From Candidatus Nanohaloarchaea archaeon (GTDB taxonomy: Archaea; Nanohalarchaeota; Nanosalinia; Nanosalinales; Nanosalinaceae), in NCBI GenBank assembly GCA_013343275.1, contig CP046106.1:736001-800000 (forward strand): 64,000 nt of DNA, read 5' to 3'. Positions 46,094 through 61,931 of this stretch are shown here, in pieces (the stretch's first letter is position 1; every line of letters begins with the position of its first letter). Both the position numbers and the translations under genes were made by a program. The notes under the pieces were generated by a model. It was not told the DNA's origin and did no database searches. It was given only the letters and a program-made list of their open reading frames with translations.

Positions 46094-48199
46094 ATGTATA
46101 TGATCGTAGGCGGTTACCAGATCAGCAATATTCTAATCGCGGCCCTTCTTGTATCTTCAGTAGCAGGACTAGGAGTATCGACAGATTCCTTCTCAGGTAT
46201 AACTGATTCAATGTCCAATATACTGCCCACAGGCTCTGTGGATTCTGGCAACCAGACAGATCAGAACAATACCAACAGCCAGGGAGATTCAGATCAAAAT
46301 ACGGGAGGCCAGGACTCTGATCAAAACAACCAAGGTTCGGGAGATGGTTCTTCTGGAGATAATACTGATACAGGCCAAAATACTGGATCAGATAATGATA
46401 CTGGAACCGGAACTCCTACTGACGGCAATAATACGCAGGATGTAGTTAACGAGACAGAACAAACTGTAAACGAGACAACAGGAAACCAGACAGATGGGAC
46501 TGTAACCAATGAGACAGAACAAACTACGGGGGATAATCAGACAACTACTGATGGAAACGAGACCAACACGGATACTTCTGATCATATTAGCTTCTTCGAG
46601 CCGTCAGAAGGCTACGAACTAAATACTTCATCTCTTCCTGCATCTTTCTCCTTGCTAGCTTCTATTAGCGCCTCCAATGCCAGTTACGAAGTTAGAATGG
46701 AGGGTTCCATCCGTTTATCAGGGCAATTAGATGGTGATAAAACGCTGGATAAAAGCTTGCAGGTAGACTCTGAAGGACAGCACACCTTAGATATAATTTT
46801 GTTCAAAGATGGAAGTCAGCTAGCGAAGGAATCTCGAACGTTTACCGTAAACCTTGATGGCAGCTCAACAACCACAACAGGGTTCTACATTCCTGGCAAT
46901 CTAACGGCTGAAGAATATTCTACTCTAACCTTATACGATGAAAACGGAAATACTGTAAGCGGCAAGACAATATATCTTGACGGCAGCAGCATAGGAGAAA
47001 CAGACCAATACGGCCAACTAGAGTTCCTAGTACCTAACAAGCAAGAAATAACACTATCTACAGATTCGAGACAGAAAACATATCAGGTACATAACTACAC
47101 TGATTCAAGTATTGATCTGTCTCTTAGTTTCGCTAAAAAAGTATATCAGGGCAGAACTAACACTCTTACAGTAACAAATAATGGAGCGGCTGTTGAGAGC
47201 GCAGAAGTATACGCTAATGGTGTTCCAAAAGGTTCTACGAACTCTAGTGGTCAAGTCAAGTTCACTATACCAGAAGAAAGCTCGATTACAATTAAAGTAA
47301 ATAAGAATGGATCTTCTGATGATGAGACATTTACAGCAGAAGTACCTCCTATAGATGTGACGTTCTTGAACCCTGATAAAGGAGAGAGTATAGAGGACTA
47401 CAAACTGGAGTTCGACTTCAATGTCGAGCTTACTGAGTCAGGAACTGTAACTTTATCTGTAGAAGGATCACAAGTTCTCCAAAAGAGCTTAGGCGCTGGT
47501 AAGACTAAAATAACAAAAAAGATGGAATTTGTAAATTCTGGGACAAGACAGTACACTGTAACAGTAGACACATCATCCGAAACAAGAACTCATTCGAGAG
47601 AATTCACTACAACGCAAGACATGCCGCCTATAGATATCAATATTACTTCTCCAAATTCAGGTGAATCTATCAGCAACTACAAAACGACTGTTGATTACAG
47701 TATAAGATCTCCAGAAAGCTTCGACTACAAAGTGACTGTAGATGGAAGAGAACTAGTTGATCTAGGTTATCCGGATGGCCAGCTTTCCAAGACAACGCAG
47801 GCTAACTGTCTAGATTCAGGATCACACACTTTGACTGTAGAGGCGACAGGAGATCAGAGAGGAACTACCTACTCCGAATCCGTACAGTTTGACACTACTG
47901 AATCACACCCAATAGCTGACATGGTTATAAGTGGTCCTTCAGAAGGAGAAACGGTCAGTTCGCCGTTCTCGGTTAACTACACTGTCTTCACTTGCACAAG
48001 CATGAGTTTCGAATCAAGAATAGAACAAAGCGGCAGCACAGTCAAGACAGTACAGGGAGGAGGACAAACCCTAGGCGCTTACTCCTACATCAGATCCCCG
48101 ACAACAGAGTACGACCTTAGCTCAGGAAGCTACAGTCTGGTGCTCGAAGCCAATGCTGGAAGCACACTGACAAAATCAAACTCATTCGAGGTGAATTAG
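46094..48199 (+). CDS. Membrane-anchored surface protein, type A1 (low-complexity linker + Ig-like repeats)
   Basis: N-terminal hydrophobic helix, D/N/Q/T/G linker, repeats V.GA.V..NG...G.T...G...F..P. Confidence 0.85.
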   Translation: MYMIVGGYQISNILIAALLVSSVAGLGVSTDSFSGITDSMSNILPTGSVDSGNQTDQNNTNSQGDSDQNTGGQDSDQNNQGSGDGSSGDNTDTGQNTGSDNDTGTGTPTDGNNTQDVVNETEQTVNETTGNQTDGTVTNETEQTTGDNQTTTDGNETNTDTSDHISFFEPSEGYELNTSSLPASFSLLASISASNASYEVRMEGSIRLSGQLDGDKTLDKSLQVDSEGQHTLDIILFKDGSQLAKESRTFTVNLDGSSTTTTGFYIPGNLTAEEYSTLTLYDENGNTVSGKTIYLDGSSIGETDQYGQLEFLVPNKQEITLSTDSRQKTYQVHNYTDSSIDLSLSFAKKVYQGRTNTLTVTNNGAAVESAEVYANGVPKGSTNSSGQVKFTIPEESSITIKVNKNGSSDDETFTAEVPPIDVTFLNPDKGESIEDYKLEFDFNVELTESGTVTLSVEGSQVLQKSLGAGKTKITKKMEFVNSGTRQYTVTVDTSSETRTHSREFTTTQDMPPIDINITSPNSGESISNYKTTVDYSIRSPESFDYKVTVDGRELVDLGYPDGQLSKTTQANCLDSGSHTLTVEATGDQRGTTYSESVQFDTTESHPIADMVISGPSEGETVSSPFSVNYTVFTCTSMSFESRIEQSGSTVKTVQGGGQTLGAYSYIRSPTTEYDLSSGSYSLVLEANAGSTLTKSNSFEVN

Positions 48200-48205
48200 T
48201 TTCCG

Positions 48206-51200
48206 ATGAGCAGTATCAGAAAGTTAAGTATTTTTCTTATTCTTCTGCTTGTTTCTTCATCTCTTGCTTCATCGGCTTTAATTGATAGGGATTCTTGGGA
48301 GTGTACTAATGAGGGCTGGAGCTTCTCTGAGAACACTGGAGACTCTGGAGACTGGGGCTGGAACTCTTGTTCCACTAACTATGTGACCTACGGTAGCTAC
48401 TCTGCTAGAATGGGGTCGATGGTAGGAAGCGGTAGTACTTATGGAGATAGCGTGGCTTCGGGGACATGGGGCCAGATATACAAGACTTTCGACCTCACAA
48501 ATGTTAACCAGATTACTTTCGATATCAGGACTCGATGGAACAGCAGAGCGACTGTAGATGTTATAGTAGGAGGTAACACTCTTTGGAGTAAAGGCGGATG
48601 CGGATATACTTGTACCTATACAGACCAAACTATAGATGTTTCAGGATATTCTGGCAATACACAAATTAAGATAAGACAAACTTCTACTACGTCCAACTAT
48701 GATTACTGGTATGCTGTGGATAACTGGAGAGTACAAGGTAATACTAACTCAGCCCCTTATGCTCCTTCCAGCCCTAACCCAAATAATGGTGCCTCGGATG
48801 TCTCCACTTCTCCCTCCATCTCCGCTTACTATAATGACCCGGATGGAGACTCAGGTACTCTTTACTACTATACTGGGGGAGGCAGTTTTATTGATTCGTG
48901 CGGAGTTTCAGACGGATCTCGCTGTAGTGTAACATATAGTGGAGCAAGTAGTTCTGGTACTACTTATGACTGGTATGCTGTAGCTGATGATGGTTCAGCC
49001 AGTACATCATCTAGCACTTGGAGCTTCACGACCAACTATGCGCCTAGCGCGCCATCGAACCCTTCTCCTAACAACGGGCAGGATACGGTTTCTACTAGCC
49101 CTACTCTTAGTGTAGATGTTAGTGATCCAGATGGAGATAGTATGGATGTAAGGTTCTATGACGGTAATGGGGACTTGATTGGTACTGATACAAGCGTAGG
49201 TAGCGGGTATACTGCATCTGTTACTTGGAGCGGTCTTAGTACGGGTACTACTTATGACTGGTATGCTGTGGCTGATGATGGTCCAGAAACTACTTCATCT
49301 AGTACTTGGAGTTTTACTACAGTCCATAAGCCAAATCAACCGTTTAATCCAGCGCCGTTTGATGGGGAGAATGATGTTTCAACGTCTCATAATCTTTATG
49401 TTGATGTTAGTCATCCTGATGGCCTGAGTATGGATGTAGATTTCTATATAGATGATGGTGGTGGTTTCACATATGTTGGAACAGATACAGGTGTTTCTGA
49501 CGGTGGTAGGGCTTCGATTAACCCTTCGTTAAGTACGGGAGGTGGTTATAATTGGTATGCTGTTGCGAAAGCTCAGGGTCATTCGCGCCAAAGCCCTACA
49601 TGGGGTTTCTCCACAAATGATATTCCTTCAGTAGATAGTGTCTCAAAGACAGATTCATCAAATAACCATGCTTTTAGCAGTGTTACAGCTATGGTCAGAG
49701 ACTCTGATGGACAGGGGGATATCTCTTCTGCAACTTTAACTGTTGATGATGCTGATGGTAATACACAGAGCTATTCAGGAACTATTGATACTTCTGCAGG
49801 AGGATCTAATGAGGCGCGAGTGAGCTTCGGATCTGTTAGCTACTCTGATAATGCTGGGTGGGGAGGAAATGAACAGGTACAGCTAGATGTACAGGTAACA
49901 GATACTCATAGTAGAACGGCAACAGGTTCATCCTTAGCTCGATTCCCTAACCATGCACCTACTATTTCATCTGGCTACAGTTATAGTGATGATGCCCAGA
50001 ACCATGCTTTTACTTTGAGTATTGATGCGCAGGATGTGGATGCAGGAGGTAGCGAAATCACAAGTTGCACTGTATCTCATAATGATGGTGACGGTAATTC
50101 GTACACGAGTAGTGGAAGTCTTGTACAGGCCGAAACTGCCACATGCAGCTTCACCATTTCAGCCAGTTCCTTCACAGGCTATACCAAAGGAGAAGTCATT
50201 AATCATCAGGTAACTTTCACTGATAGGCACGGCGCAACAGTAATCTCGTCTTCAGGACAGCATAGAATCCCTAACAGCGCTCCTACAGCTACTAATCTCC
50301 AGCCTTCTGGTAGTGAAGTGCAGTATGGCCCTACTTTGAATGCTACCTATAATGATGCTGATGGAGATGTAGGTAATCTGACGTTCTACAATACTAGCAG
50401 TGGCAATGTTATTGGCAAGGTTACAGGTCTCTCTCCGGGACAGCAGGGTAGTATGCAGTGGAGTAGTGCAGATACTCCTGGTACAACTTACAACTTCACT
50501 GTAAAAGCGTTCGATGGGGTAAATGCCACGAATACTACTGAGAACTTCACAACTATCTATGAACCGAAGGAGCCTTATGATCCGTGGCCGACGAACCAGT
50601 CGACGGTAGATACTACGACTAGAACGGATGATGAGATAGCTGCAAGTGTTAAGGTTGTACATCCTGATGGACGTGATATGCATGTTCAGTTTGTGAATGC
50701 GTCTAATGATCAGATTATGGAAATTGATTATGGTGTTGCATCAGGTACTAGGGCCAAGATCACCAACATCGGTAACAAGCTACGTGACAAGACAAACACT
50801 ACCTACAACTGGTATGCTGTATCAAAAGATACGGGAACTGGTGAAAAGACTCGTAGCAGCCTCTTCACGTTTGATACTGTCGAAGTCGGTGATGTTATGT
50901 TTGATGTGATGCAGGGCCGTAATGAGAACATGGATATTACCGGTAACTCTGACAATGGTTACCGGAAGATCAAGTTCGAGATCACTTCAACACAGATGGA
51001 TCCTATTCCAAAAGTTACAGTCAATGAGACCTCTACAGGTGATCTGATTAAGTCGTGGACGGATGTTGCTAACAACTCTGTCTTGACTGTTGACCTGGTG
51101 CAGGATGGGGGCCAGGAATGGAACCTGAATACTGACAGTCAGTATCAGTGGTTTGTTGAGGCTAGTGAGGGGCCTAACATCCTTGGTCAGAGCTTGAATT

Positions 51201-51487
51201 ATACGATATACACCTATAACGTAACTCTTGACTGGGATCGTGCGGAGAAGTACTACAATGTCTACCAATACGATATTTACCGCGCTCAGGACACTGGTGG
51301 CAATCTGGTATTCAACTACGGCAGTGGAGATTATGATGTGGTTGGTTCTCTTCCGGAGACCAGCTTCAATGACTCGGGTCCTGGATTGAGTACTGGTACT
51401 TTCTGCTGGAAGGTAGCAGCCTCCAATCCGACAGGTAGTAGCCCGGCAATACCTTCAGGAGAAGGCAACTGTAAGACACTCAACTAA
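48206..51487 (+). CDS. Secreted adhesin B1: jelly-roll/CBM-like tip, Ig/FN3-like stalk, conserved C-terminal FN3-like domain
   Basis: Signal peptide; repeats NxAPxAPxNP...YDWYAVADDG...WSFTT; C-terminus TFCWKVAASNPTGSSPAIPSGEGNCKTLN. Confidence 0.85.
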   Translation: MSSIRKLSIFLILLLVSSSLASSALIDRDSWECTNEGWSFSENTGDSGDWGWNSCSTNYVTYGSYSARMGSMVGSGSTYGDSVASGTWGQIYKTFDLTNVNQITFDIRTRWNSRATVDVIVGGNTLWSKGGCGYTCTYTDQTIDVSGYSGNTQIKIRQTSTTSNYDYWYAVDNWRVQGNTNSAPYAPSSPNPNNGASDVSTSPSISAYYNDPDGDSGTLYYYTGGGSFIDSCGVSDGSRCSVTYSGASSSGTTYDWYAVADDGSASTSSSTWSFTTNYAPSAPSNPSPNNGQDTVSTSPTLSVDVSDPDGDSMDVRFYDGNGDLIGTDTSVGSGYTASVTWSGLSTGTTYDWYAVADDGPETTSSSTWSFTTVHKPNQPFNPAPFDGENDVSTSHNLYVDVSHPDGLSMDVDFYIDDGGGFTYVGTDTGVSDGGRASINPSLSTGGGYNWYAVAKAQGHSRQSPTWGFSTNDIPSVDSVSKTDSSNNHAFSSVTAMVRDSDGQGDISSATLTVDDADGNTQSYSGTIDTSAGGSNEARVSFGSVSYSDNAGWGGNEQVQLDVQVTDTHSRTATGSSLARFPNHAPTISSGYSYSDDAQNHAFTLSIDAQDVDAGGSEITSCTVSHNDGDGNSYTSSGSLVQAETATCSFTISASSFTGYTKGEVINHQVTFTDRHGATVISSSGQHRIPNSAPTATNLQPSGSEVQYGPTLNATYNDADGDVGNLTFYNTSSGNVIGKVTGLSPGQQGSMQWSSADTPGTTYNFTVKAFDGVNATNTTENFTTIYEPKEPYDPWPTNQSTVDTTTRTDDEIAASVKVVHPDGRDMHVQFVNASNDQIMEIDYGVASGTRAKITNIGNKLRDKTNTTYNWYAVSKDTGTGEKTRSSLFTFDTVEVGDVMFDVMQGRNENMDITGNSDNGYRKIKFEITSTQMDPIPKVTVNETSTGDLIKSWTDVANNSVLTVDLVQDGGQEWNLNTDSQYQWFVEASEGPNILGQSLNYTIYTYNVTLDWDRAEKYYNVYQYDIYRAQDTGGNLVFNYGSGDYDVVGSLPETSFNDSGPGLSTGTFCWKVAASNPTGSSPAIPSGEGNCKTLN

Positions 51488-51586
51488 CTACGCAAACCTC
51501 TCTATTTCTTTGTCCTTATACATGCTGATACCTTGATATTTTGGCCCTAGAAGCCTTATAACTGGATAATTCTCATTCAAAGATAA

Positions 51587-54160
51587 ATGTCGAAAGGTTT
51601 AGTGCTCGGCGGATACCAGATCAGCAACGTACTGATAGCAATCCTTCTAGTGGCCTCAACAACAGGCGCAGGAGTAGCCACCGACTCCTTCTCAGGTATA
51701 ACTGATTCAATGTCCAACATTCTACCATCAAACTCTGTAAGCCCTGATAACAAGACAGATCGGAACAGTACTGGCAATCAAGGAGATACAGGAGGCCAGG
51801 ATTCTGATCAAAACGATCAAGGTTCGGAGGATGGTTCTGGTGATGGTTCCTCAGATAGCTCGGATTCTGATTCTGAAGGATTTCTGGACGATATACTAGG
51901 TGGCGATGAAAAGCAGAAAGATCAGAACTCTGACGGCCAAACTGACAATACAACTGAAAAAAATACAGATACTTCAGATAATGAAACTCAGACTCCTGAT
52001 ACAGGCAATACGACAAATACTACAACTGCGAGTATAGCTTCTATCTCGGACCCTCAACCTGCCCAGTACTTCCCTGCCTACGAGACATCCTCTGTACCTC
52101 TATACGTAGAGTTCTCCGGAGAAGACGCAAACTTTGAGATTTGGCTGGACGGCCAGTCCTATCTTACAGGACAGATCTCAGGTACTAAAACAGTAAATAG
52201 GACGCTAGACCTCTCTACAACAGGCAGTCATGAACTGAAGATAGAGGTCAGACAATCAGGAGAAGTAGTCGATTCTCTTACCAGAACATTCGAAATAGCA
52301 GACTCAGCAATACAGGAAACAGGCTTCGAGAAAACAACCACTGTAAGGACAGGAGCAGAAGCAACCTTCAGACTTCTCTACAATGGAGAACCGGTCTCTG
52401 GAGCAGCAGTATCGATGGGGGGAACACAGGTAGGCCAGACGAATCAGGACGGAGAGATAACAGTCCAGGTACCTTACCAGGACACAATTACATTATCGAC
52501 GGACTACCAGGAGATAGGATCTCAAACATTTAACGTAACGCAAGACATACCGGAACCGACAGTAACCCTTGTAAACCCGGTTGACTCGGAAACATTCGAT
52601 ACTCCAACCAGCCAGCAAAAAGACGTACAGTTCAACGCAACAGTCGATATAGCAGAAGACTCCGGTACAGCATCCCTGATGATCGATGGCTCCGAAGTCT
52701 ACTCGCAACAGCTTTCACAGGGAGAAAATACAATTACTACGACACAGAGCCTAGCAGGAGGAACTCACAACTGGAAGATAGAAGTCGACACGCCGGAATA
52801 CAATGTTTCATCCTCCAGTAGAAGCCTGACAGTCAACGAGGTACAGGTGCAGGACGGTATCTCCCTACAGAACACGCCGCCAACAGTTGGGAACGTCAAC
52901 TACGTAAGGCTCTACAACAACGGAGAACCGGTGACAAACCACGACATAACCATCAACGGCCAGACCTACACAACAAACTCTCAGGGAGAAGCACAGTTTA
53001 CAGTACCGAACGCACAGGAACTAACAATCTCTTCCAGTTCTCCCGATTACCAGAAAACATACACTATAGAAGGATACAACCCAGAGATCAGCATGAGCTT
53101 CTCCTTCTCCAAAACCCTGTACCAGGGCCGACAGAATACCTTGACAGTGACCAGCGACGGAAGCGCAGTTAGCGGTGCAACAATCTACGCCAACGGAAAG
53201 CAAAAAGGCCAGACGGACTCCTCTGGCCAGTTAACATTCACGATACCGGAAGAAGACTCTGTCACAATTAAAGCAGTGAAAGATAATTCCGAGAAAAACA
53301 AGACATACACCGCCCAGATTCCACCGATCGATATTACCTGGTTCGGCCCTGACGACGGTGCCAGTATCAATGATTACAAGACAACCTTCGACTTCTCACT
53401 CGGTCTTCAGAGTTCAGCTACCGCCACCCTGACAGTCGGAGGCCAGCAAAGGCTGCAGAAAAGCCTGAGCTCGGGGACTCACAGCATCACCAAAGAAATC
53501 AAGTTCGAAAACTCGGGAACAAGAGACTACACCCTAGAAGTACAGACAGACGGTAATAGAAGGACGAAGACCGGTAGCTTTACAACTGAGCAGGATATGC
53601 CGCCGATACAGATCAGCATCAGCAACCCATCCAGCGGAGAAACCATCAACGACTACAAAACTACGATTCAGTACGGATTTGACTCTCCAGAAGACTTTAA
53701 CTATACTCTTTCAGTAGATGGACGCCATTTAGATAGTTTAAGTCTTCTATCGGGACAGACCTCTAGGCAAGCGGTAGCTAACTGTTTAACTCAGGGGCAG
53801 CATACTTTAGAGATTGTAGCAAAGGGAGAAAAAACAGGGAAGACTACTAAGACCATACAGTTTACTTCGAGCGTAGCACAGCCTTTGGCTGATATACAAA
53901 TTGATTCGCCTAAGTCATCAGAAACCGTTCAGAATCCTGTCGGCTTTTATTATAAGATTACTGCGTGCCAGGATATAAGCTACGATGTCTCTACTGAAGG
54001 CCAAAATCTTGATTCCGGAAGTCTCAGCGCCTATTCTATAGCACTTTCTCCTCCAGGACTTGAAAAAGATTATTCCTCCTTAGGTAAGCATAATTGGACG
54101 ATTTCAGTAAGTAATGGTTCTCAAACTTTGAAGAAAGAAATAATGTTTAGTGTGGAATAA
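51587..54160 (+). CDS. Membrane-anchored surface protein, type A2 (paralog of 46094-48199)
   Basis: Shared N-terminus GGYQISN..TDSFSGITDSMSNILP and shared C-terminal modules (FTT.QDMPPI, ANCL). Confidence 0.85.
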   Translation: MSKGLVLGGYQISNVLIAILLVASTTGAGVATDSFSGITDSMSNILPSNSVSPDNKTDRNSTGNQGDTGGQDSDQNDQGSEDGSGDGSSDSSDSDSEGFLDDILGGDEKQKDQNSDGQTDNTTEKNTDTSDNETQTPDTGNTTNTTTASIASISDPQPAQYFPAYETSSVPLYVEFSGEDANFEIWLDGQSYLTGQISGTKTVNRTLDLSTTGSHELKIEVRQSGEVVDSLTRTFEIADSAIQETGFEKTTTVRTGAEATFRLLYNGEPVSGAAVSMGGTQVGQTNQDGEITVQVPYQDTITLSTDYQEIGSQTFNVTQDIPEPTVTLVNPVDSETFDTPTSQQKDVQFNATVDIAEDSGTASLMIDGSEVYSQQLSQGENTITTTQSLAGGTHNWKIEVDTPEYNVSSSSRSLTVNEVQVQDGISLQNTPPTVGNVNYVRLYNNGEPVTNHDITINGQTYTTNSQGEAQFTVPNAQELTISSSSPDYQKTYTIEGYNPEISMSFSFSKTLYQGRQNTLTVTSDGSAVSGATIYANGKQKGQTDSSGQLTFTIPEEDSVTIKAVKDNSEKNKTYTAQIPPIDITWFGPDDGASINDYKTTFDFSLGLQSSATATLTVGGQQRLQKSLSSGTHSITKEIKFENSGTRDYTLEVQTDGNRRTKTGSFTTEQDMPPIQISISNPSSGETINDYKTTIQYGFDSPEDFNYTLSVDGRHLDSLSLLSGQTSRQAVANCLTQGQHTLEIVAKGEKTGKTTKTIQFTSSVAQPLADIQIDSPKSSETVQNPVGFYYKITACQDISYDVSTEGQNLDSGSLSAYSIALSPPGLEKDYSSLGKHNWTISVSNGSQTLKKEIMFSVE

Positions 54161-57100
54161 TGAGAAAGTATCTTGCTTTGCTCGGTACTCTAGTATTTCT
54201 TCTGCTGAGTATTCCTGCCGCTACTGCTTCTACCGTCACCTGGTCTGATAGTAGCGACTGGAATAACGCTGTTTCAGATTTTGGTGTCGTTCATGAGTCT
54301 GTCACAAATACTGACCACAACGATGCAGGAAAGCTTCAGAAAGGGTATCCGATTCAGAATCCGGTCGTGAGTTATGGCCTCGTTGGATACTGGCCTCTAC
54401 AAGAGGATAGCGGCGATACGGCCTATGATTTTAGCGGATATAACGATGCATCGGCTAGTGCTCCGACTCAAGGCAGTAGCGGTATTTTAGGATCTTCAAG
54501 TTACTACTTTAATACTGAGAGTGCTGACGCATCTACGATAGACCTGGAGTACTATAGCTTTAACGCCTGGATTAATGATGAAGGAAGTACCTATTACGCA
54601 CGAGCGATGAGTAATGGGCGCGATGGTACTGATCCGAGCGCTACCTATGCAATGGGTTCAAGAAACGGATGGCCGACTGCTGTAATGAGGAAGAATGGTA
54701 ATACTTATACTATTGGCTCGGGTCTAAATCCATCAGATTGGACTATGGTGACTGTTACGTATGATGGCGACACGTTAAAAGTTTATACTGATGGTTCTTT
54801 AACCGGATCCAGTACAGCTCCCTCTGGCCCTATAGGCGATGTTACAGGCCCCTTCAACCTTGGATCGACTGAAAGGTATCCTGGAAATGAAGGTATAACA
54901 GGTTATTTACAAGAGGCAAGTTTGTACAACAGGGCACTTTCTGCCTCCGAGATCCAATCTCTATACGAAGTAGCGGCTACACCAGGAACACTCACCACAG
55001 GATGGAAAACATTCTCATCCAACAGAGACATGAACTCTTTACAATTAGAAAATGTGCAGGCCTCTTTGAATGGCGGTAGTATCACTGTTTATGTGGAGAC
55101 TCAGAATGGCGAGGTCAGCGATCCGATTAGTCTGGATGGTAGTGGTGGTCCTTATAGTGTGACGGGGTTGTCGACTGAGGAGGATCAGTTCCGTTTGGAT
55201 ATCAGGTTGGATAATAGTGATGTGACGAGTACGCCTACTTTGTCGGCGATTGATTTGACGGGTAATAAGGCTAATTCTCCTCCTGCTGCTCCTTCGAATG
55301 AGGATCCTGCTGACAATGCTGATCCTGTATCTTTGAGTCCTTCTTTGAGCGTATTTGTCGACGATCCGGATGGCGATAGTATGGATGTTACTTTCTATGT
55401 TGATACGAATAATGATGGGAGTTATGAGACTACGAAGACTAATACAGGTGTTGCGAGTGGCAGTACTACTTCTGTAAGTCTTTCTTCTCTGGCCACTAGC
55501 CAGACAGTTAACTGGTATGTGGTGGCTGATGACGGTAGAGCTACTACTCAGTCAAGTACTTGGAGTTTCACGACTGTAGGTGTTCCAAGTATTACTTCAG
55601 CGCCTTCTCCGAGTGATGGCGCGGTAGATGTTTCCACCTCTAAGAATCTGGCTATTGATGTTTCTCATCCTGATAATCTAGATATGACTGTTGAGTTCTC
55701 TATGGATGGTTCGTATGTAGGCAGTGATACTGTTGCAGGTAGCGGTACTGCTTCTTACAGTCCTTCCCTGGGTTACAGTGAGGATCATTCCTGGAGTGTC
55801 GATGTCTATACGCAGGGTTACTCCACTCAGACGAGCGGAGGCGCCTGGAACTTCCATACCGTGCATGATGTAAGCGCTTCTCTTTCCGGGCCTTCCAAAA
55901 GCCCTGCCAGTATTGATCCTACGTTGAGTGCGACAGTCAGCCACAGTGATTCTGCTGAGACTGTTACTGTGGATTTCGTTAACACAGATAATGGCAACAC
56001 TATTTGCAGTGTTTCCGGTATAGGGAATGCTGAGACTGCTACCTGTGATACTTCTGGAAGCAGTTTCGGTAGTAGCCCCGGTACGACTTATAACTGGGAG
56101 GTCCAGCTTTCGGGTGATGAGGGCTCTGAGTCGTGGACGAGCAGTCAGAGAAGCTTCACCACTATTTCAAATCCTAACGTGAACAGAGTTGAGCCTGGTT
56201 CGAACTCTGGTGTGTCTACAGACCAGAATCTGGTTGTTGATGTCAGTCATCCTGATGGGAAGAATATGAATGTCGAGTTCATGATCAGGAAAGCAGGGCA
56301 GACATCTTTCAGTACAGTAGATACCAAGACAGATGTTTCTGGCCAGGTTTCGGCCAATCCCTCTTTGAGTGACGGCACAAGTTACGAGTGGCGTGTTGAT
56401 GTAAGGACTGTGGGATACAGTACAGACACAATGAGTTCCATTTGGGGCTTTACCACTAACTATGTGCCTTCAGTCTCAGGCATTACCAAGTATGACGCGT
56501 CTGATGGCCACGCTTTCAGGAACGTTTCTGCTATAATCAGCGATCAGGACGGAGATGACACGATCGTTGATGCAAATCTTACAGTAGATAATGACGGTGG
56601 ACTGGAAACTTATGTTGAGTACGATGAAGTTAGTATTGACAGAAGTTATGGAGGAGACGATAATCAGGCCAACGTAACCTTTGGCAGAGTCAATGTTGGG
56701 GATAGTAACTGGGGCCTAACAGGTATAGATCTTCAGGTTGAAGGTATCGATCAGGAGGGTAACGTTGGGTCAAATACACTATCTAATGTCCAGTTCCCTA
56801 ACCATGCTCCGACAGTAGCCTCAGGTTACAGTTACAGCGATAGTCCGCAGGCCCACTCCTACACTTTGAGTATTGATGCCCAGGATGTGGATGATACTGA
56901 TGAAGAGATTGCTTCATGTACAGTCGACCATAACGACGGCGACGGAAACTCCTATACTGGCAAGGCCGGTAGCCTGGCTTCTGGTGAGACTGCTACCTGC
57001 AGCTTCACGATAGACAACAGTACCTCAGGTTACAGGTTCGGTGAGATGATCAACCACAGGGTAACTTTCAAGGATGCACACGGTAAGACTGTGACCTCAA

Positions 57101-58347
57101 CGTGGGCCTCGCACAGAATCCCTAACAGTCTGCCTTCAGCTACGAATTTGAGGCCTGCTAGTGATAATACTTCGTATGACGCGGATTTGAAGGCTACCTA
57201 CAATGATCCTGACGGAGATGTAGGGAACTTGACATTCTACAATACCACTAGCGGTGAAGAGTTGGGTGCTGTGGCTGACCTTGCGCCCGGAGAGCAGGGA
57301 ACTGTTGATTTGGTTGGAGAGTTAGCTCCTGGTACTACTTACAACTTCACTGTGGAGGCCTCGGATGGTGTTAATTCCACTAACAGTACTGAGAACTTCA
57401 CAACTATTTACAGGCCAGATGAGCCTTATGATCCGTTCCCTGAGAATGACACGGTTATAGATACTACTACCAGGAGCGGAGATGATATTGCAGCGAGTGT
57501 AAAGGTTGTACAGGATGATGGGCACACTATGAATGTACAGTTCATTAATGCAAGCGATGATAGCCCTCTAGGTACAGATTATGATGTGGAGTCGGGTACG
57601 CGTGCCAAGTTGACAAGTATTGGTAATACTTTGCGTGATGAGACGAATACTACGTATCGCTGGTATGCTGTAGCTACAGATCAGACGACTGGAGAATCAG
57701 TGAGAAGTGATACGTTCGTCTTCAGGACTCCCGAAGTAGGTGAGGTAAGGTTTGATGTGATGCAGGGGCGTAATGAGAACATGGATATTACTGGTAACTC
57801 TGATAATGGTTATCGGAAGATCAAGTTTGAGGTTACGTCCACGGAAATGGATCCAATCCCAACTGTGATCGTCAATGAGACCGGTACCGGGAATATGATC
57901 AAGTCGTGGAGCAATGTCGCCAACAACTCTGTCCTAACGATAGATTTAGTGCAGGATGGTTCTCAGGACTGGAATCTAGATACGGACGAAAAGTATGAAT
58001 GGACGGTGGAGGCTCGTGATGGCTCTAATATCTTAGGAAACCGTAGCTACGATATCTACACGTACAACGTGACTCTTGACTGGGACAGGGCTGAGAAATA
58101 CTACAATGTCTATCAGTATGATATTTACCGTGCTGAGCAGAGGTCTGGTGTGGATCTGACCTTTAACTATGGGAACGGAGATTACAATCTAGTCGGTTCT
58201 CTTCCAGAGACGAGTTTCAATGACTCGGGGCCGGGCATTGTTCCCGATCATACAGGTACTTTCTGTTGGAAGGTAGCTGCATCCAACCCTACGGGTAGCA
58301 GCCCGGCGATTCCTTCAGGAGAAGGCAACTGCAAAACACTGAACTAA
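54160..58347 (+). CDS. Secreted adhesin B2: LamG/ConA-like tip, Ig/FN3-like stalk, conserved C-terminal FN3-like domain
   Basis: GLVGYWPL, WTMVTVTYDG, LYNRALSASEI (LamG); C-terminal ~500 aa closely similar to B1. Confidence 0.88.
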   Translation: MRKYLALLGTLVFLLLSIPAATASTVTWSDSSDWNNAVSDFGVVHESVTNTDHNDAGKLQKGYPIQNPVVSYGLVGYWPLQEDSGDTAYDFSGYNDASASAPTQGSSGILGSSSYYFNTESADASTIDLEYYSFNAWINDEGSTYYARAMSNGRDGTDPSATYAMGSRNGWPTAVMRKNGNTYTIGSGLNPSDWTMVTVTYDGDTLKVYTDGSLTGSSTAPSGPIGDVTGPFNLGSTERYPGNEGITGYLQEASLYNRALSASEIQSLYEVAATPGTLTTGWKTFSSNRDMNSLQLENVQASLNGGSITVYVETQNGEVSDPISLDGSGGPYSVTGLSTEEDQFRLDIRLDNSDVTSTPTLSAIDLTGNKANSPPAAPSNEDPADNADPVSLSPSLSVFVDDPDGDSMDVTFYVDTNNDGSYETTKTNTGVASGSTTSVSLSSLATSQTVNWYVVADDGRATTQSSTWSFTTVGVPSITSAPSPSDGAVDVSTSKNLAIDVSHPDNLDMTVEFSMDGSYVGSDTVAGSGTASYSPSLGYSEDHSWSVDVYTQGYSTQTSGGAWNFHTVHDVSASLSGPSKSPASIDPTLSATVSHSDSAETVTVDFVNTDNGNTICSVSGIGNAETATCDTSGSSFGSSPGTTYNWEVQLSGDEGSESWTSSQRSFTTISNPNVNRVEPGSNSGVSTDQNLVVDVSHPDGKNMNVEFMIRKAGQTSFSTVDTKTDVSGQVSANPSLSDGTSYEWRVDVRTVGYSTDTMSSIWGFTTNYVPSVSGITKYDASDGHAFRNVSAIISDQDGDDTIVDANLTVDNDGGLETYVEYDEVSIDRSYGGDDNQANVTFGRVNVGDSNWGLTGIDLQVEGIDQEGNVGSNTLSNVQFPNHAPTVASGYSYSDSPQAHSYTLSIDAQDVDDTDEEIASCTVDHNDGDGNSYTGKAGSLASGETATCSFTIDNSTSGYRFGEMINHRVTFKDAHGKTVTSTWASHRIPNSLPSATNLRPASDNTSYDADLKATYNDPDGDVGNLTFYNTTSGEELGAVADLAPGEQGTVDLVGELAPGTTYNFTVEASDGVNSTNSTENFTTIYRPDEPYDPFPENDTVIDTTTRSGDDIAASVKVVQDDGHTMNVQFINASDDSPLGTDYDVESGTRAKLTSIGNTLRDETNTTYRWYAVATDQTTGESVRSDTFVFRTPEVGEVRFDVMQGRNENMDITGNSDNGYRKIKFEVTSTEMDPIPTVIVNETGTGNMIKSWSNVANNSVLTIDLVQDGSQDWNLDTDEKYEWTVEARDGSNILGNRSYDIYTYNVTLDWDRAEKYYNVYQYDIYRAEQRSGVDLTFNYGNGDYNLVGSLPETSFNDSGPGIVPDHTGTFCWKVAASNPTGSSPAIPSGEGNCKTLN

Positions 58348-58388
58348 TGGAAACTGTAAAAAACTAGAGTGAGATAAGTGTTGTTATA

Positions 58389-58952
58389 ATGGATTTGAGC
58401 GATATTAATCCGAGTTTCAAGCAGATTGCTGCAGCGATGGCAGTAGTTTTCTTGCTGATTACAGGCCTTAATACTATGCTTGCGCCTGATGGAGGTTATG
58501 CCGGCGATTTAGCCGATACTATTTCCAACAACGATAATTCTAACAACGGGGATGCACAGAACCAGTCTCAGGATCAGACAGATCCTTACTATGAGAAGGC
58601 CACTGATGATTCTACCAGTTCCGACAGCGGCAACAGTGATGGTTCCGGGTCTCTGAATGAGACTGAGAAGACGAAGATCGAGAACAACTTTGAAGGTTAT
58701 GTAAATGCCAGCAACCGTGATAACGGCATCTATCTTGATAGGAAGGCTGTTGCCGGAGAATGGAACAATATTCAGGTGATGTACAATGGTAATCCTGTTG
58801 AAGGTGCCGAAGTGCTGGTGAACGGCCAGAGTATAGGTGCTACTGGAGAATATGGTGGCGTCTACTTCAAGGTTCCACAGGCCGATCGTATAACTGTGAG
58901 GACGACTACTGAAAACCTTGGAACTGTTGAGAATACTTACAAGGTGTACTGA
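58389..58952 (+). CDS. Short membrane-anchored type A3 protein (one Ig-like module)
   Basis: TM helix, linker, NGNPVEGAEVLVNGQSIGATGEYGGVYFKVP, the same module as in A1/A2. Confidence 0.8.
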   Translation: MDLSDINPSFKQIAAAMAVVFLLITGLNTMLAPDGGYAGDLADTISNNDNSNNGDAQNQSQDQTDPYYEKATDDSTSSDSGNSDGSGSLNETEKTKIENNFEGYVNASNRDNGIYLDRKAVAGEWNNIQVMYNGNPVEGAEVLVNGQSIGATGEYGGVYFKVPQADRITVRTTTENLGTVENTYKVY

Positions 58953-58953
58953 T

Positions 58954-59442
58954 TTGAGTAAGTCTCTGGGCCAGTCGGCTATCGAGTACGTGACGACGTA
59001 CGGGTGGATGCTTGTGGCGGTTTCGGTTGCTGCAGGCACTACGTACAGTTTCGTGGATTTCAGCTGTGCCCGGCAGAGTACAGGCTTCTACTCGGAATCC
59101 ATGGCGATAGAGAATTTTGGAGTGACATCTAATGGCACATTAGTTATCTCTGTCAAGAACGATGATTACAACCAGCTGGAGATTACAGGCCTGAATATGT
59201 CCGCTCCTGAGGAGAAAAGATTCAGAAACACGTCTACGGTTATTGAACCAGGTAGTTCCAAGGCTGTAGGGCTACCAGGGTATACTCTTTCTGAACGCTG
59301 CTATGAATACGATGTAACTATGATATACAGCAGAGGGCCTTTGGATGAGCAGAAGCTTAGAGGCACTATAACTGCTCCTATTGCGCCAGGACCTATTCCT
59401 GTTCCTGATGCTCCGGCGAACCTGACTGTAGAGGTAGCTTGA
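58954..59442 (+). CDS. Class III signal-peptide (type IV pilin-like) protein
   Basis: SKSLG|QSAIEYVTTYGWMLVAV prepilin motif with +5 Glu; TTG start refined to 58954. Confidence 0.85.
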   Translation: MSKSLGQSAIEYVTTYGWMLVAVSVAAGTTYSFVDFSCARQSTGFYSESMAIENFGVTSNGTLVISVKNDDYNQLEITGLNMSAPEEKRFRNTSTVIEPGSSKAVGLPGYTLSERCYEYDVTMIYSRGPLDEQKLRGTITAPIAPGPIPVPDAPANLTVEVA

Positions 59443-60509: not shown

Positions 60510-61931
60510 ATGGAACTCAACAAAATATCCGAAAATATCTACGAAATACCGCAGGAAGGCCAGATGAACAAACCGGCCAGAGTCTACGCCAACGAAGAAC
60601 TTCTCAACGAAATCAGACAGGACGACACACTGGAACAGATAAAGAACGTAGCAACCCTACCAGGCCTTGAAAAGTACTCAATCGTCATGCCTGACGGCCA
60701 CCAGGGCTACGGCTTCCCAATCGGCGGAGTCGCAGCAGTAAACAAAGAAAACGGCGTTATCAGCCCTGGAGGTATCGGCTACGATATAAATTGTGGCATC
60801 AGAGTGCTTAAAACAGACCTCAGCTATGAAGATATCAAGGGCCGGGAGCAACAGCTTGCAAATATACTTTACAGTAAGATTCCATGCGGCCTTGGAAGAG
60901 GAGGTTATATCGATACTGATAGAGAGGATCTTGAAGAAATACTTGAGAAAGGAGCTGAGTGGATGCTTGAAAACGGACACGCAAAGGAGTCCGATATCAG
61001 GAGATGTGAGGAGGAAGGAAGGCTTCCTGGTAATCCTGATAAGGTTCCGGAGGACGCAAAGAAGCGAGGCCTTAATCAGGTGGGGAGCCTCGGTAGCGGA
61101 AACCACTTCCTGGAGATACAGCGCGTCGGAGAGATCTACAACGAGCAGAAGGCGGAGGCCTATGGTCTGGAAGAGGATCAAGTGGTTATCATGATCCACT
61201 CAGGTTCTCGAGGCCTAGGCCATCAGACCTGCACCAATTATCTCAGGAAGTTTGAGAAAGAGTATCCGGAGATTGTAGAGGAAATACCGGATAAGGAGCT
61301 GATCTATGCGCCGATGCAGGATGAGCTGGCTCAGGACTACAAGGAGGCGATGTATGCTGCGGCAAACTATGCGTGGGCTAACCGCCAGGCCATAACTCAG
61401 GGAGTACGTGAATGCCTGGATACTATCTACGATGACGGTGTTGAGACGGAGCTTCTGTACGATGTCTGTCATAACATTGCTAAGGAGGAGACTCACGAGG
61501 TCGATGGCGAGGAAAAGGAGCTTCTGGTCCACAGAAAAGGAGCGACACGTGCTATGCCGGCTGGAAGGCCTGAAGTGCCGGAGGTCTACCGTGATGTAGG
61601 TCAGCCAGTACTTATTCCGGGCAGCATGGGTACTGCGAGCTACGTTCTTTCAGGCGGAGAAAAATCTCTGGAAATCAGCTTTGGATCAACAGCTCACGGT
61701 GCCGGAAGGCTTATGTCCCGGACCCAGGCCAAGCAGGATTACTGGGGAGAAGACGTTCAGGCCGAACTGAAGAGAGACCAAATATTCGTGAAAGCGGCCT
61801 CAGGATCAACCATCGCAGAAGAGGCTCCTGGAGTCTACAAGGATATCGATGAAGTAATCAAGGTCAGCGACGAGCTTGGAATCGGCAATAAGGTTGCGAA
61901 GATGAGGCCTGTTGTAAACATCAAAGGATAA
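60510..61931 (+). CDS. rtcB: RNA-splicing ligase RtcB
   Basis: MPDGHQGYGFPIGG, GYDINCG, GSGNHF, HSGSRGLGH, VHRKGAT, HGAGR. Confidence 0.97.
   Translation: MELNKISENIYEIPQEGQMNKPARVYANEELLNEIRQDDTLEQIKNVATLPGLEKYSIVMPDGHQGYGFPIGGVAAVNKENGVISPGGIGYDINCGIRVLKTDLSYEDIKGREQQLANILYSKIPCGLGRGGYIDTDREDLEEILEKGAEWMLENGHAKESDIRRCEEEGRLPGNPDKVPEDAKKRGLNQVGSLGSGNHFLEIQRVGEIYNEQKAEAYGLEEDQVVIMIHSGSRGLGHQTCTNYLRKFEKEYPEIVEEIPDKELIYAPMQDELAQDYKEAMYAAANYAWANRQAITQGVRECLDTIYDDGVETELLYDVCHNIAKEETHEVDGEEKELLVHRKGATRAMPAGRPEVPEVYRDVGQPVLIPGSMGTASYVLSGGEKSLEISFGSTAHGAGRLMSRTQAKQDYWGEDVQAELKRDQIFVKAASGSTIAEEAPGVYKDIDEVIKVSDELGIGNKVAKMRPVVNIKG

Follow-up and report, generated by a model that had tools for sequence, protein, structure and literature searches.

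How does an archaeon keep hold of giant surface proteins that carry no anchor of their own? The question is posed by a block of six genes in the window analysed here, the whole of a 64,000-nucleotide stretch (positions 736001-800000 of contig CP046106.1) from the single-contig, 915,886-base genome of a Candidatus Nanohaloarchaea archaeon (assembly GCA_013343275.1). Two of the six genes encode giant secreted proteins, B1 and B2, which we treat as adhesins, and the last encodes a class III (type IV-like) pilin. Both giants end in a fibronectin type III (FN3)-like domain that begins at strand B; the pilin ends in a short, proline-led strand. Our answer, which we regard as probable, is that these are the two parts of one fold, a split-FN3 plug and socket in which the pilin tail completes the terminal FN3 of the adhesins.

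Nanohaloarchaea and other DPANN archaea need physical contact with a host, and both the anchoring of their large surface proteins and the cargo of their type IV-like pili are largely obscure. In one Nanohaloarchaeum paper (PMC11291902), type IV pili figure only as candidates, and the words 'pilin', 'adhesin' and 'fibronectin' are absent. If true, the split fold would supply a concrete attachment mechanism for adhesins, a rule by which adhesin-pilin pairs could be picked out of metagenomes (a C-terminal FN3 that begins at strand B, together with a proline-led strand at the end of a pilin), and a natural hypersaline strand-complementation pair that might serve as a protein-ligation or display module. 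A preliminary description of the stretch had already interpreted the locus as strand completion, an interpretation that gains support, with exceptions, from the complex model and the survey of co-occurrence set out below.

The terminal domain and the pilin tail

B1 (48206-51487, + strand) and B2 (54160-58347, + strand) are proteins of 1093 and 1395 amino acids (aa), 55% identical over 935 aa and 80.5% identical over their last 109. Each starts with a Sec-type signal peptide (MSSIRKLSIFLILLLVSSSLASSA in B1), continues in a stalk of immunoglobulin (Ig)- and FN3-like repeats and ends without a hydrophobic C-terminus that could serve as an anchor. Near its N-terminus B2 carries Laminin_G_3, a ConA-like lectin family (PF13385, E 8.2e-18, residues 125-266), and elsewhere a stretch weakly matched by Pfam to FN3_DSCAM that lies outside the terminal domain; B1 matches no Pfam family at E up to 0.1.

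What closes both proteins is a domain of ~90 residues, YNVTLDWD...FCWKVAASNPTGSSPAIPSGEGNCKTLN, located at 51215-51487 (+) in B1 and, as a domain of the same kind, at 58063-58347 (+) in B2. Translated with their stop codons excluded (51215-51484 and 58063-58344), the two segments run from YNVTLDWD to GNCKTLN, and the preliminary description was right both in its coordinates and sequences and in observing that the domain starts at strand B and that the pilin ends in PVPDAPANLTVEVA. Immediately ahead of the B1 domain stands ...YQWFVEASEGPNILGQSLNYTIYT, which has the same F-G pattern, Y.W...A.DG....S.W.FTT, as the repeats before it. Within the domain a conserved pair of cysteines, one on the F strand and one on the G strand, is followed by the stop codon 4 aa past the second. 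A Protein Data Bank search with a profile of seven such domains returned titin (E 8.3e-7), FN3con (4u3h, E 4.6e-5) and neuroglian (3.3e-4), with profile positions 7-76 aligned to 26-93 of the FN3con chain, that is, from strand B to the F-G loop. By its profile the domain is a relative of FN3 comprising strands B to G, with the conserved tryptophan of strand B and the Y/F-x-V-x-A-x-N-x-x-G motif of strand F. There are two copies in the 915,886-base genome (E 4.8e-26 and 3.1e-23 by profile), the next tblastn match standing at E 0.059; among 1.84 billion representative proteins it has five close relatives, the query included, all with the domain at the extreme C-terminus of large proteins, and the more distant matches are FN3-repeat proteins.

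An FN3 domain normally takes strand A from its own chain. An iterated profile run over loci from Nanohaloarchaea genomes and metagenomes gave 76 domain matches, of which 70 end no more than 25 aa from a stop codon and 6 are internal, and the two groups differ in precisely this respect. In none of the 43 distinct terminal copies do the 24 aa ahead of strand B contain a P-x(0-2)-P lead-in, and the gap that separates strand B from the F-G hairpin or last strand of the preceding domain is 0-4 residues; in two of them that preceding strand appears, from its sequence and in the absence of a family match, to be the last strand of a PKD-like domain. All five distinct internal copies carry a canonical proline-led A strand (for example ILPAPTSLSVV or ITPPNSPSSLST), and its motif is that of the pilin tails. 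The internal copies are the strongest evidence at sequence level that the terminal ones genuinely lack strand A: the proline-led strand is present in 5/5 and absent in 43/43, its absence in cis can be read directly from the sequences, and the pattern is hard to account for unless the tail replaces the strand. One further peculiarity belongs to the B1/B2 lineage, an insertion of ~20 residues after strand B, DRAEKYYNVYQYDIYRA (within 51215-51330 and 58063-58180), that other terminal FN3 domains do not have.

The candidate donor lies a little further along the same strand. The pilin gene (58954-59442, +) probably starts at a TTG at 58954, two bases past the stop codon of the small gene in front of it, and from that TTG encodes 162 aa beginning MSKSLG|QSAIEY. 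The class III signal, MSKSLG|QSAIEYVTTYGWMLVAV (with other end points, QSAIEYVTTYGWMLVAVSVAAG and QSAIEYVTTYGWML), has the features of its class: a short polar or basic N-terminus, glycine at position -1 and a hydrophobic helix of the G|QSAIEYLxTYGWML type, with G6, Q7, S8, I10, E11 and Y12 invariant across 21 pilin homologues. These are the pilin itself and the 20 homologues found at E up to 0.01 among 110 candidates. At the other end the protein reads ...APIAPGPIPVPDAPANLTVEVA and closes in the tail PVPDAPANLTVEVA and its stop (59398-59442, +), our proposed donor (FN3 A) strand; the distance from that stop to the next gene is 37 bases, so that nothing follows the strand.

Direct inspection of the alignment shows how well the tail is conserved. 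The pattern P-x-P-x-[AP]-P-x-N/D/S-[LIF]-x-[VLA], with one to five residues after it, recurs in 17 of the 21 aligned rows, down to ~31% identity. Within the genome such a C-terminal proline-led strand ends 3 of 3214 stop-to-stop frames of at least 80 aa; the pilin is one, and the other two are taken for non-coding. Together, the two copies of the terminal domain, the scarcity of such frame ends and the conservation of the tail go beyond what chance would give. Two further open reading frames (ORFs) of the genome have the pilin's N-terminus in common with it, making three class III pilin-like ORFs, and the tail is found in one of the three. In an AlphaFold2 (AF2) model built on the 21-row alignment (mean predicted local distance difference test, pLDDT, 76.5) residues 41-145 form a beta-sandwich at pLDDT ~85-92, and the tail, residues 146-162, is a coil at pLDDT 63-66 that does not pack on its own domain. 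The best Foldseek match of this model is 8fk7_A, the type IV pilus of Pyrobaculum calidifontis (E 5.7e-5, TM 0.44/0.51), with the Sulfolobus Aap pilin 8q30 at rank 11.

A different cause for the conservation of the tail, an N-glycosylation sequon (N-L-T), was considered and rejected, since N-x-S/T is missing from many tails. Two pilins depart from the usual layout. Homologue P0026 (264 aa) has a longer C-terminal extension past the tail region, and at L111 10155-10841 (G041:C5) a 477-aa protein with a terminal FN3 is immediately followed by a class III pilin (...KKAQAAIEYL) whose end consists of three tail-like units in tandem, ...APSPPNGSFLTTSQIQVDYSQ, QPQQPNGSFLTTKPLSVDYSQ and IPSSPSGANIAS, which may be several docking strands on a single pilin.

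Pairing of adhesin and pilin across Nanohaloarchaea

If tail and terminal domain are parts of one fold, they should be found together, as the preliminary description had anticipated, and across divergent Nanohaloarchaea they are: a terminal FN3 stands within 3 kb of 23 of the 32 clusters of tailed pilins and of 5 of the 81 clusters of untailed ones. The count is a direct one, made on pooled loci that yielded 164 pilin ORFs. Grouped at 90% identity these form 129 clusters, of which 113 have enough context. A pilin was called tailed, by a rule set before counting, if it had at least two prolines among its last 16 aa, a rule that admits false positives (GPVP-like ends) and produces false negatives (tails with one proline). 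The 9 tailed and 76 untailed clusters without a neighbouring terminal FN3 complete the table and give an odds ratio of 38.8 with a Fisher p of 2.8e-12, a value that is overstated because the clusters are kin.

Several of the discordant clusters turn out to be pairs in disguise. Among the nine with a tail and no FN3, L002 and L114 are pairs in another gene order, L146 has a diverged terminal FN3 without cysteines that the profile missed, and most of the remainder simply have GPVP-like ends. Of the five with an FN3 and no tail, three (L148, L149 and L154) have one-proline tails and start 6-15 nucleotides (nt) after the adhesin, and the other two are second pilins beside a tailed one. Where the pair is present it is tightly packed: in 20/23 paired clusters the mature pilin N-terminus lies no more than 33 nt from the last codon of the adhesin, and the two genes therefore abut or overlap. 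The locus in the window differs in that B1 and B2 share one pilin gene; most relatives are arranged one to one, with overlapping genes.

The same association holds when the count is begun from the adhesins. Class III pilins lie within 1.4 kb downstream of 29 of the 42 distinct terminal-FN3 ORFs by script, six more have a pilin in the locus by inspection, and one is cut by a contig end. The cases settled by inspection comprise a divergent arrangement (L002/L049), two pilins missed by the regular expression (L111, L122), one pilin that lies upstream (L114), and two adhesins that have a pilin in common with a neighbour, namely B1 of the window and the second adhesin of L136. Among the 78 genome loci that contain relatives of the pilin, the terminal domain was found only where the pilin is tailed, namely at L001, L002 (overlapping L049), L004, L020, L022 and L041; a tblastn search with the B1 terminal domain reached one of the 78, and a profile was needed. 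In all, the domain was matched in 17 of the 70 genomes of the class, with the strong matches mostly directly upstream of a tailed pilin, and relatives from the public collections are without exception labelled Nanohaloarchaea. The adhesin-pilin pair recurs often on metagenome contigs as well, the pilin start usually overlapping the end of the adhesin gene.

In four nearly complete genomes without the terminal domain, none of 12 pilins is tailed; in G053, of the same genus and 99% complete, neither the terminal-domain nor the pilin profile found a match, a null for pilins that is odd for the clade and may reflect sensitivity. Two pairs with different tails are found together in one genome in several cases (G041, G026 and L123), and the type of tail shifts along with the FN3 subtype across subfamilies, a co-variation that fits cognate pairs and would be equally expected from co-inheritance.

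At L123 5867-5992 and L124 3850-3975, downstream of a complete adhesin-pilin pair and just before a second tailed pilin, a 42-aa frame consists of the end of a terminal FN3 only. Either an adhesin has been truncated or frameshifted there, or repeats have collapsed in the assembly.

Docking, mechanism and alternatives

Would the two pieces fit? An ESMFold2 complex was modelled from B1 891-1093, which holds the penultimate and the terminal domain (20-row alignment), and pilin residues 36-162 (21-row alignment), the upstream domain being included so that the preceding strand had a chance to compete for the groove. The preliminary description had named occupation of the A-strand groove by the pilin peptide as the outcome that would support it, and the model bears this out: the tail occupies the A position on strand B with a median ipSAE of 0.75 (0.78, 0.70 and 0.75 over three runs), and all three controls scored 0.00. 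In the calibration of the tool that mark is reached by 58/80 solved complexes and 2/110 mismatched pairs, counts that are rough for this case as we used our own alignments. At least 82% of the contacts are common to the runs, with a pLDDT of at least 81 for the partner and of 87-91 for the other chain.

In the fragment numbering, where residue n is B1 residue 890+n, pilin residues 155-160 (ANLTVE) run antiparallel to residues 116-121 (VTLDWD, strand B), which are B1 1006-1011, encoded at 51221-51238 of the window. The pairs of lowest error are W120-L157, D119-T158, L118-V159, T117-E160 and V116-E160, an antiparallel register as expected for FN3 strands A and B. Pilin residues L157 and V159 lie against W178 and V180 of the F strand, the PVPDAP lead-in runs over the F-G loop (V150 and A153 facing T186 and S189), and G-strand residues 198-202 also touch the tail; in total the acceptor contacts fall on fragment residues 114-121, 123-129, 132, 178-193, 198-200 and 202, of which 123-129 and 132 belong to the B1-lineage insertion. 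As modelled, the geometry is that of strand A in an intact FN3, and the tail took the edge of strand B even though the preceding strand was present. For the geometry of contact between tail and adhesin it is the model that provides the support.

Put together, these elements suggest the following course of events. B1 and B2 would be exported through Sec with no anchor of their own, and their terminal FN3 would be made without strand A, so that strand B has a free edge and the F/G face is partly exposed. The pilin would be processed at G|Q, and its spacer and final strand, P-x-P-D-A-P-x-N-L-x-V, would insert antiparallel to strand B, an inter-chain beta-strand complementation by which the adhesin would be tethered to the pilin's N-terminal hydrophobic helix. 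The pilin would then either sit in a filament, together with a major pilin and machinery encoded elsewhere, or stay in the membrane. By inference at most, the pilin may be incorporated into a filament, perhaps at its tip, the adhesins may bind the host through their lectin-like heads and may be exchanged in the 'plug-and-play' manner imagined in the preliminary description, and paralogous pairs may be specific for their cognate partners. Pfam found no pilus machinery in the window, among the six locus proteins and nine upstream neighbours, though elsewhere the genome has four matches to PF00437 (T2SSE), one at 617520-618092, a T2SSE-type ATPase gene ~2.3 kb from another pilin gene (ORF at 620398).

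Several results weigh against the split-FN3 proposal. Because the model knows intact FN3 domains, its success says that the pieces fit as one FN3, a likeness and not a proof of binding; the AF2 model of B1 891-1093 alone (6-row alignment) has a mean pLDDT of 47.9, too poor to show an open groove. Pfam recognises neither partner, the pilin matching none of its families and the terminal domain failing to match fn3, in both cases at E up to 0.1. No prepilin peptidase of the Peptidase_A24 family (PF01478) was matched at E up to 0.001 in the ~96.5%-complete genome, where the enzyme may be divergent. The genomes and metagenome contigs of the survey are related and do not stand for independent lineages, and the pairing found in them would also fit co-assembly of the two proteins through another surface.

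There are also orphans, six of the 42 terminal-domain proteins with no class III pilin within ~10 kb: three from G006 (loci L105, L106 and L107) and one each from G062 (L108), G063 (L109) and G064 (L110). A search of these four genomes for tailed pilins, by pilin profile and a degenerate DNA pattern, turned up one untailed pilin in G006 and none elsewhere, although divergent pilins could escape the first filter. The acceptor can therefore exist without a pilin donor, or uses another; in these genomes the terminal domains must have a different strand donor, or none. In one of the G006 proteins the domain profile finds a further match, within the chain.

The strongest alternative is one that we think unlikely: adhesin and pilin would be co-expressed as parts of one surface structure, the tail being a pilin-pilin contact or a flexible spacer and the FN3 being stable without strand A or borrowing the preceding strand. 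Gene adjacency implies that the two are coupled and does not prove where they touch, the orphans suggest that a donor may be unneeded, and the passing score of the complex may reflect a memory of intact FN3 domains. What co-assembly fares badly with is the cis strand resembling the tail that every distinct internal copy carries and every terminal copy lacks, the joint change of tail type and FN3 type from one subfamily to another, and the modelled choice of the tail for strand B despite the availability of the preceding strand.

A second alternative, which we consider improbable, makes the terminal domain, a beta-sandwich stapled by its cysteines, a C-terminal sorting or secretion tag, recognised and possibly removed, to which the pilin would be incidental. 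The cargo of bacterial type IX secretion carries C-terminal domains comparable in placement. The position of the domain close to the stop codon, its presence on proteins with very different heads and the copies that do without a pilin would all suit a tag, but candidate machinery is not conserved alongside, the sole conserved neighbour being the tailed pilin, and a tag would explain neither why the pilin tail is conserved nor why strand A is missing. That the tail is coincidence, a functionless remnant of an FN3 formerly fused to the pilin, as the longer extension of P0026 might hint, is very improbable indeed, for a decaying remnant would not keep such length and motif, the tail ending 1-5 residues after its strand in 17 of 21 homologues (to ~31% identity) and in many more metagenome pilins, and with the next gene 37 bases past the stop the rest of that FN3 is absent.

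There is a wider reading that we hold to be possible, at somewhat less than even chances: that Nanohaloarchaea possess families of orthogonal split-FN3 pairs, with a dedicated adaptor pilin for every one or two giant, fast-diversifying adhesins, whose heads would be swapped and duplicated as the socket is kept, so that a cell could display several types of adhesin on type IV-like filaments without covalent anchors. Were this true, archaeal type IV pili would be loaded with cargo in a way not described before, and the host range of DPANN symbionts would in part be determined by it.

The rest of the locus and known systems

The remaining three genes of the block lie on the same strand as the others. 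Each B gene is preceded by a paralogous A gene, B1 by A1 (46094-48199, +; 701 aa) and B2 by A2 (51587-54160, +; 857 aa); they are given here as context. At the N-terminus the A proteins, among which a third at L001 2388-3086 may be counted, have in common the unusual motif M..(V/L)GGYQISN(I/V/F)LI and a hydrophobic stretch after it (MYMIVGGYQISNILIAALLV in A1), which may be a signal of a divergent, class III-like type or may simply anchor the protein in the membrane; Ig-like repeats come after an acidic linker of low complexity. Between B2 and the pilin lies a small membrane protein (58389-58952, +; 187 aa) with a hydrophobic N-terminal helix, an acidic linker and a small C-terminal beta-sandwich, for which Pfam gives weak matches only. 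Homologues are equally placed at L001, L116, L118 and L119, and the gene is absent where the pilin abuts the adhesin: it is retained in the closest lineages only and is outside the core pair.

The block is set between unrelated housekeeping genes, with an oxidoreductase, a TauE-type exporter and a helix-turn-helix protein on its 5' flank and, read by eye, a kinase-like protein, archease, RtcB and ribosomal proteins L3 and L4 on its 3' flank. RtcB has 473 aa in the window (60510-61931) and ~947 aa at L002 10928-13774 and L004 428-3271, where the greater length suggests an insertion, perhaps an intein. Neither among the genes of the locus nor among its neighbours did Pfam find a chaperone, an usher or a processing protease.

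That last result matters for comparison with the classical systems. In chaperone-usher pili, an Ig-like fold that lacks an edge strand is completed by a strand of another subunit, and adhesin and pilus subunits are thereby coupled non-covalently. In the type V pili of Bacteroidota, the C-terminal strand of the next subunit replaces an N-terminal strand that has been removed, which is the same polarity as that proposed here. By its sequences, the present locus contains what donor-strand complementation calls for, an incomplete Ig-like acceptor and a donor on another, genetically linked polypeptide. Unlike either classical system, it would take as donor a type IV-like pilin that has a class III signal and an assembly helix at its N-terminus, and as acceptor a relative of FN3 that closes a giant Sec-exported protein. 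Chaperone, usher and processing protease are missing from the locus, and complementation would join a cargo to a pilin and not polymerise a filament.

A functional parallel may be found in Kingella kingae, where, as reported in PMC13711793, a short conserved C-terminal tail of the adhesins PilC1 and PilC2 (PilC/PilY) augments the sheet of a minor pilin, an arrangement that was first inferred by multimer modelling. The likeness would be that a C-terminal tail links a large adhesin and a type IV pilus by adding a beta strand to the sheet of its partner, and the difference is that the polarity is reversed: in Kingella the tail of the adhesin enters a minor-pilin complex, whereas here the tail of the pilin would enter the adhesin. 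The acceptor, moreover, would be an incomplete FN3 and not the sheet of a pilin, and no kinship to PilC/PilY was seen, no dedicated test of it having been made.

Within the Archaea, strand donation has precedents. The preliminary description had taken donor-strand complementation to be undescribed there, which is outdated: it is reported to be used by the threads of Sulfolobus (PMC9715654), the cannulae of Pyrodictium (10.1101/2024.12.30.630787) and a haloarchaeal Tat-dependent bundling pilus (PMC12337348). What these share with our proposal is a surface structure held by strand donation between subunits; they differ in being homopolymers of subunits that are not of type IV, in which donation builds the filament and a split FN3 is not involved. 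In the text consulted, none of them is said to pair the tail of a type IV-like pilin with the FN3 of another protein, an adhesin. Archaeal type IV pili, represented by 8fk7 and the Sulfolobus Aap pilin 8q30, offer the best structural matches of the pilin model and have the class III-type N-terminus, but the pilin described here is set beside them by its fold and not by its tail, the proline-rich spacer and terminal strand being an unpacked coil in the lone model. In open-access PMC papers and bioRxiv preprints our searches brought up no case of a type IV-like pilin with a C-terminal tail that completes the FN3 of a separate adhesin. The principle of strand complementation is thus already known, in archaea as elsewhere, and it is the proposed pairing of a pilin tail with an adhesin FN3 that would be the new variation upon it.

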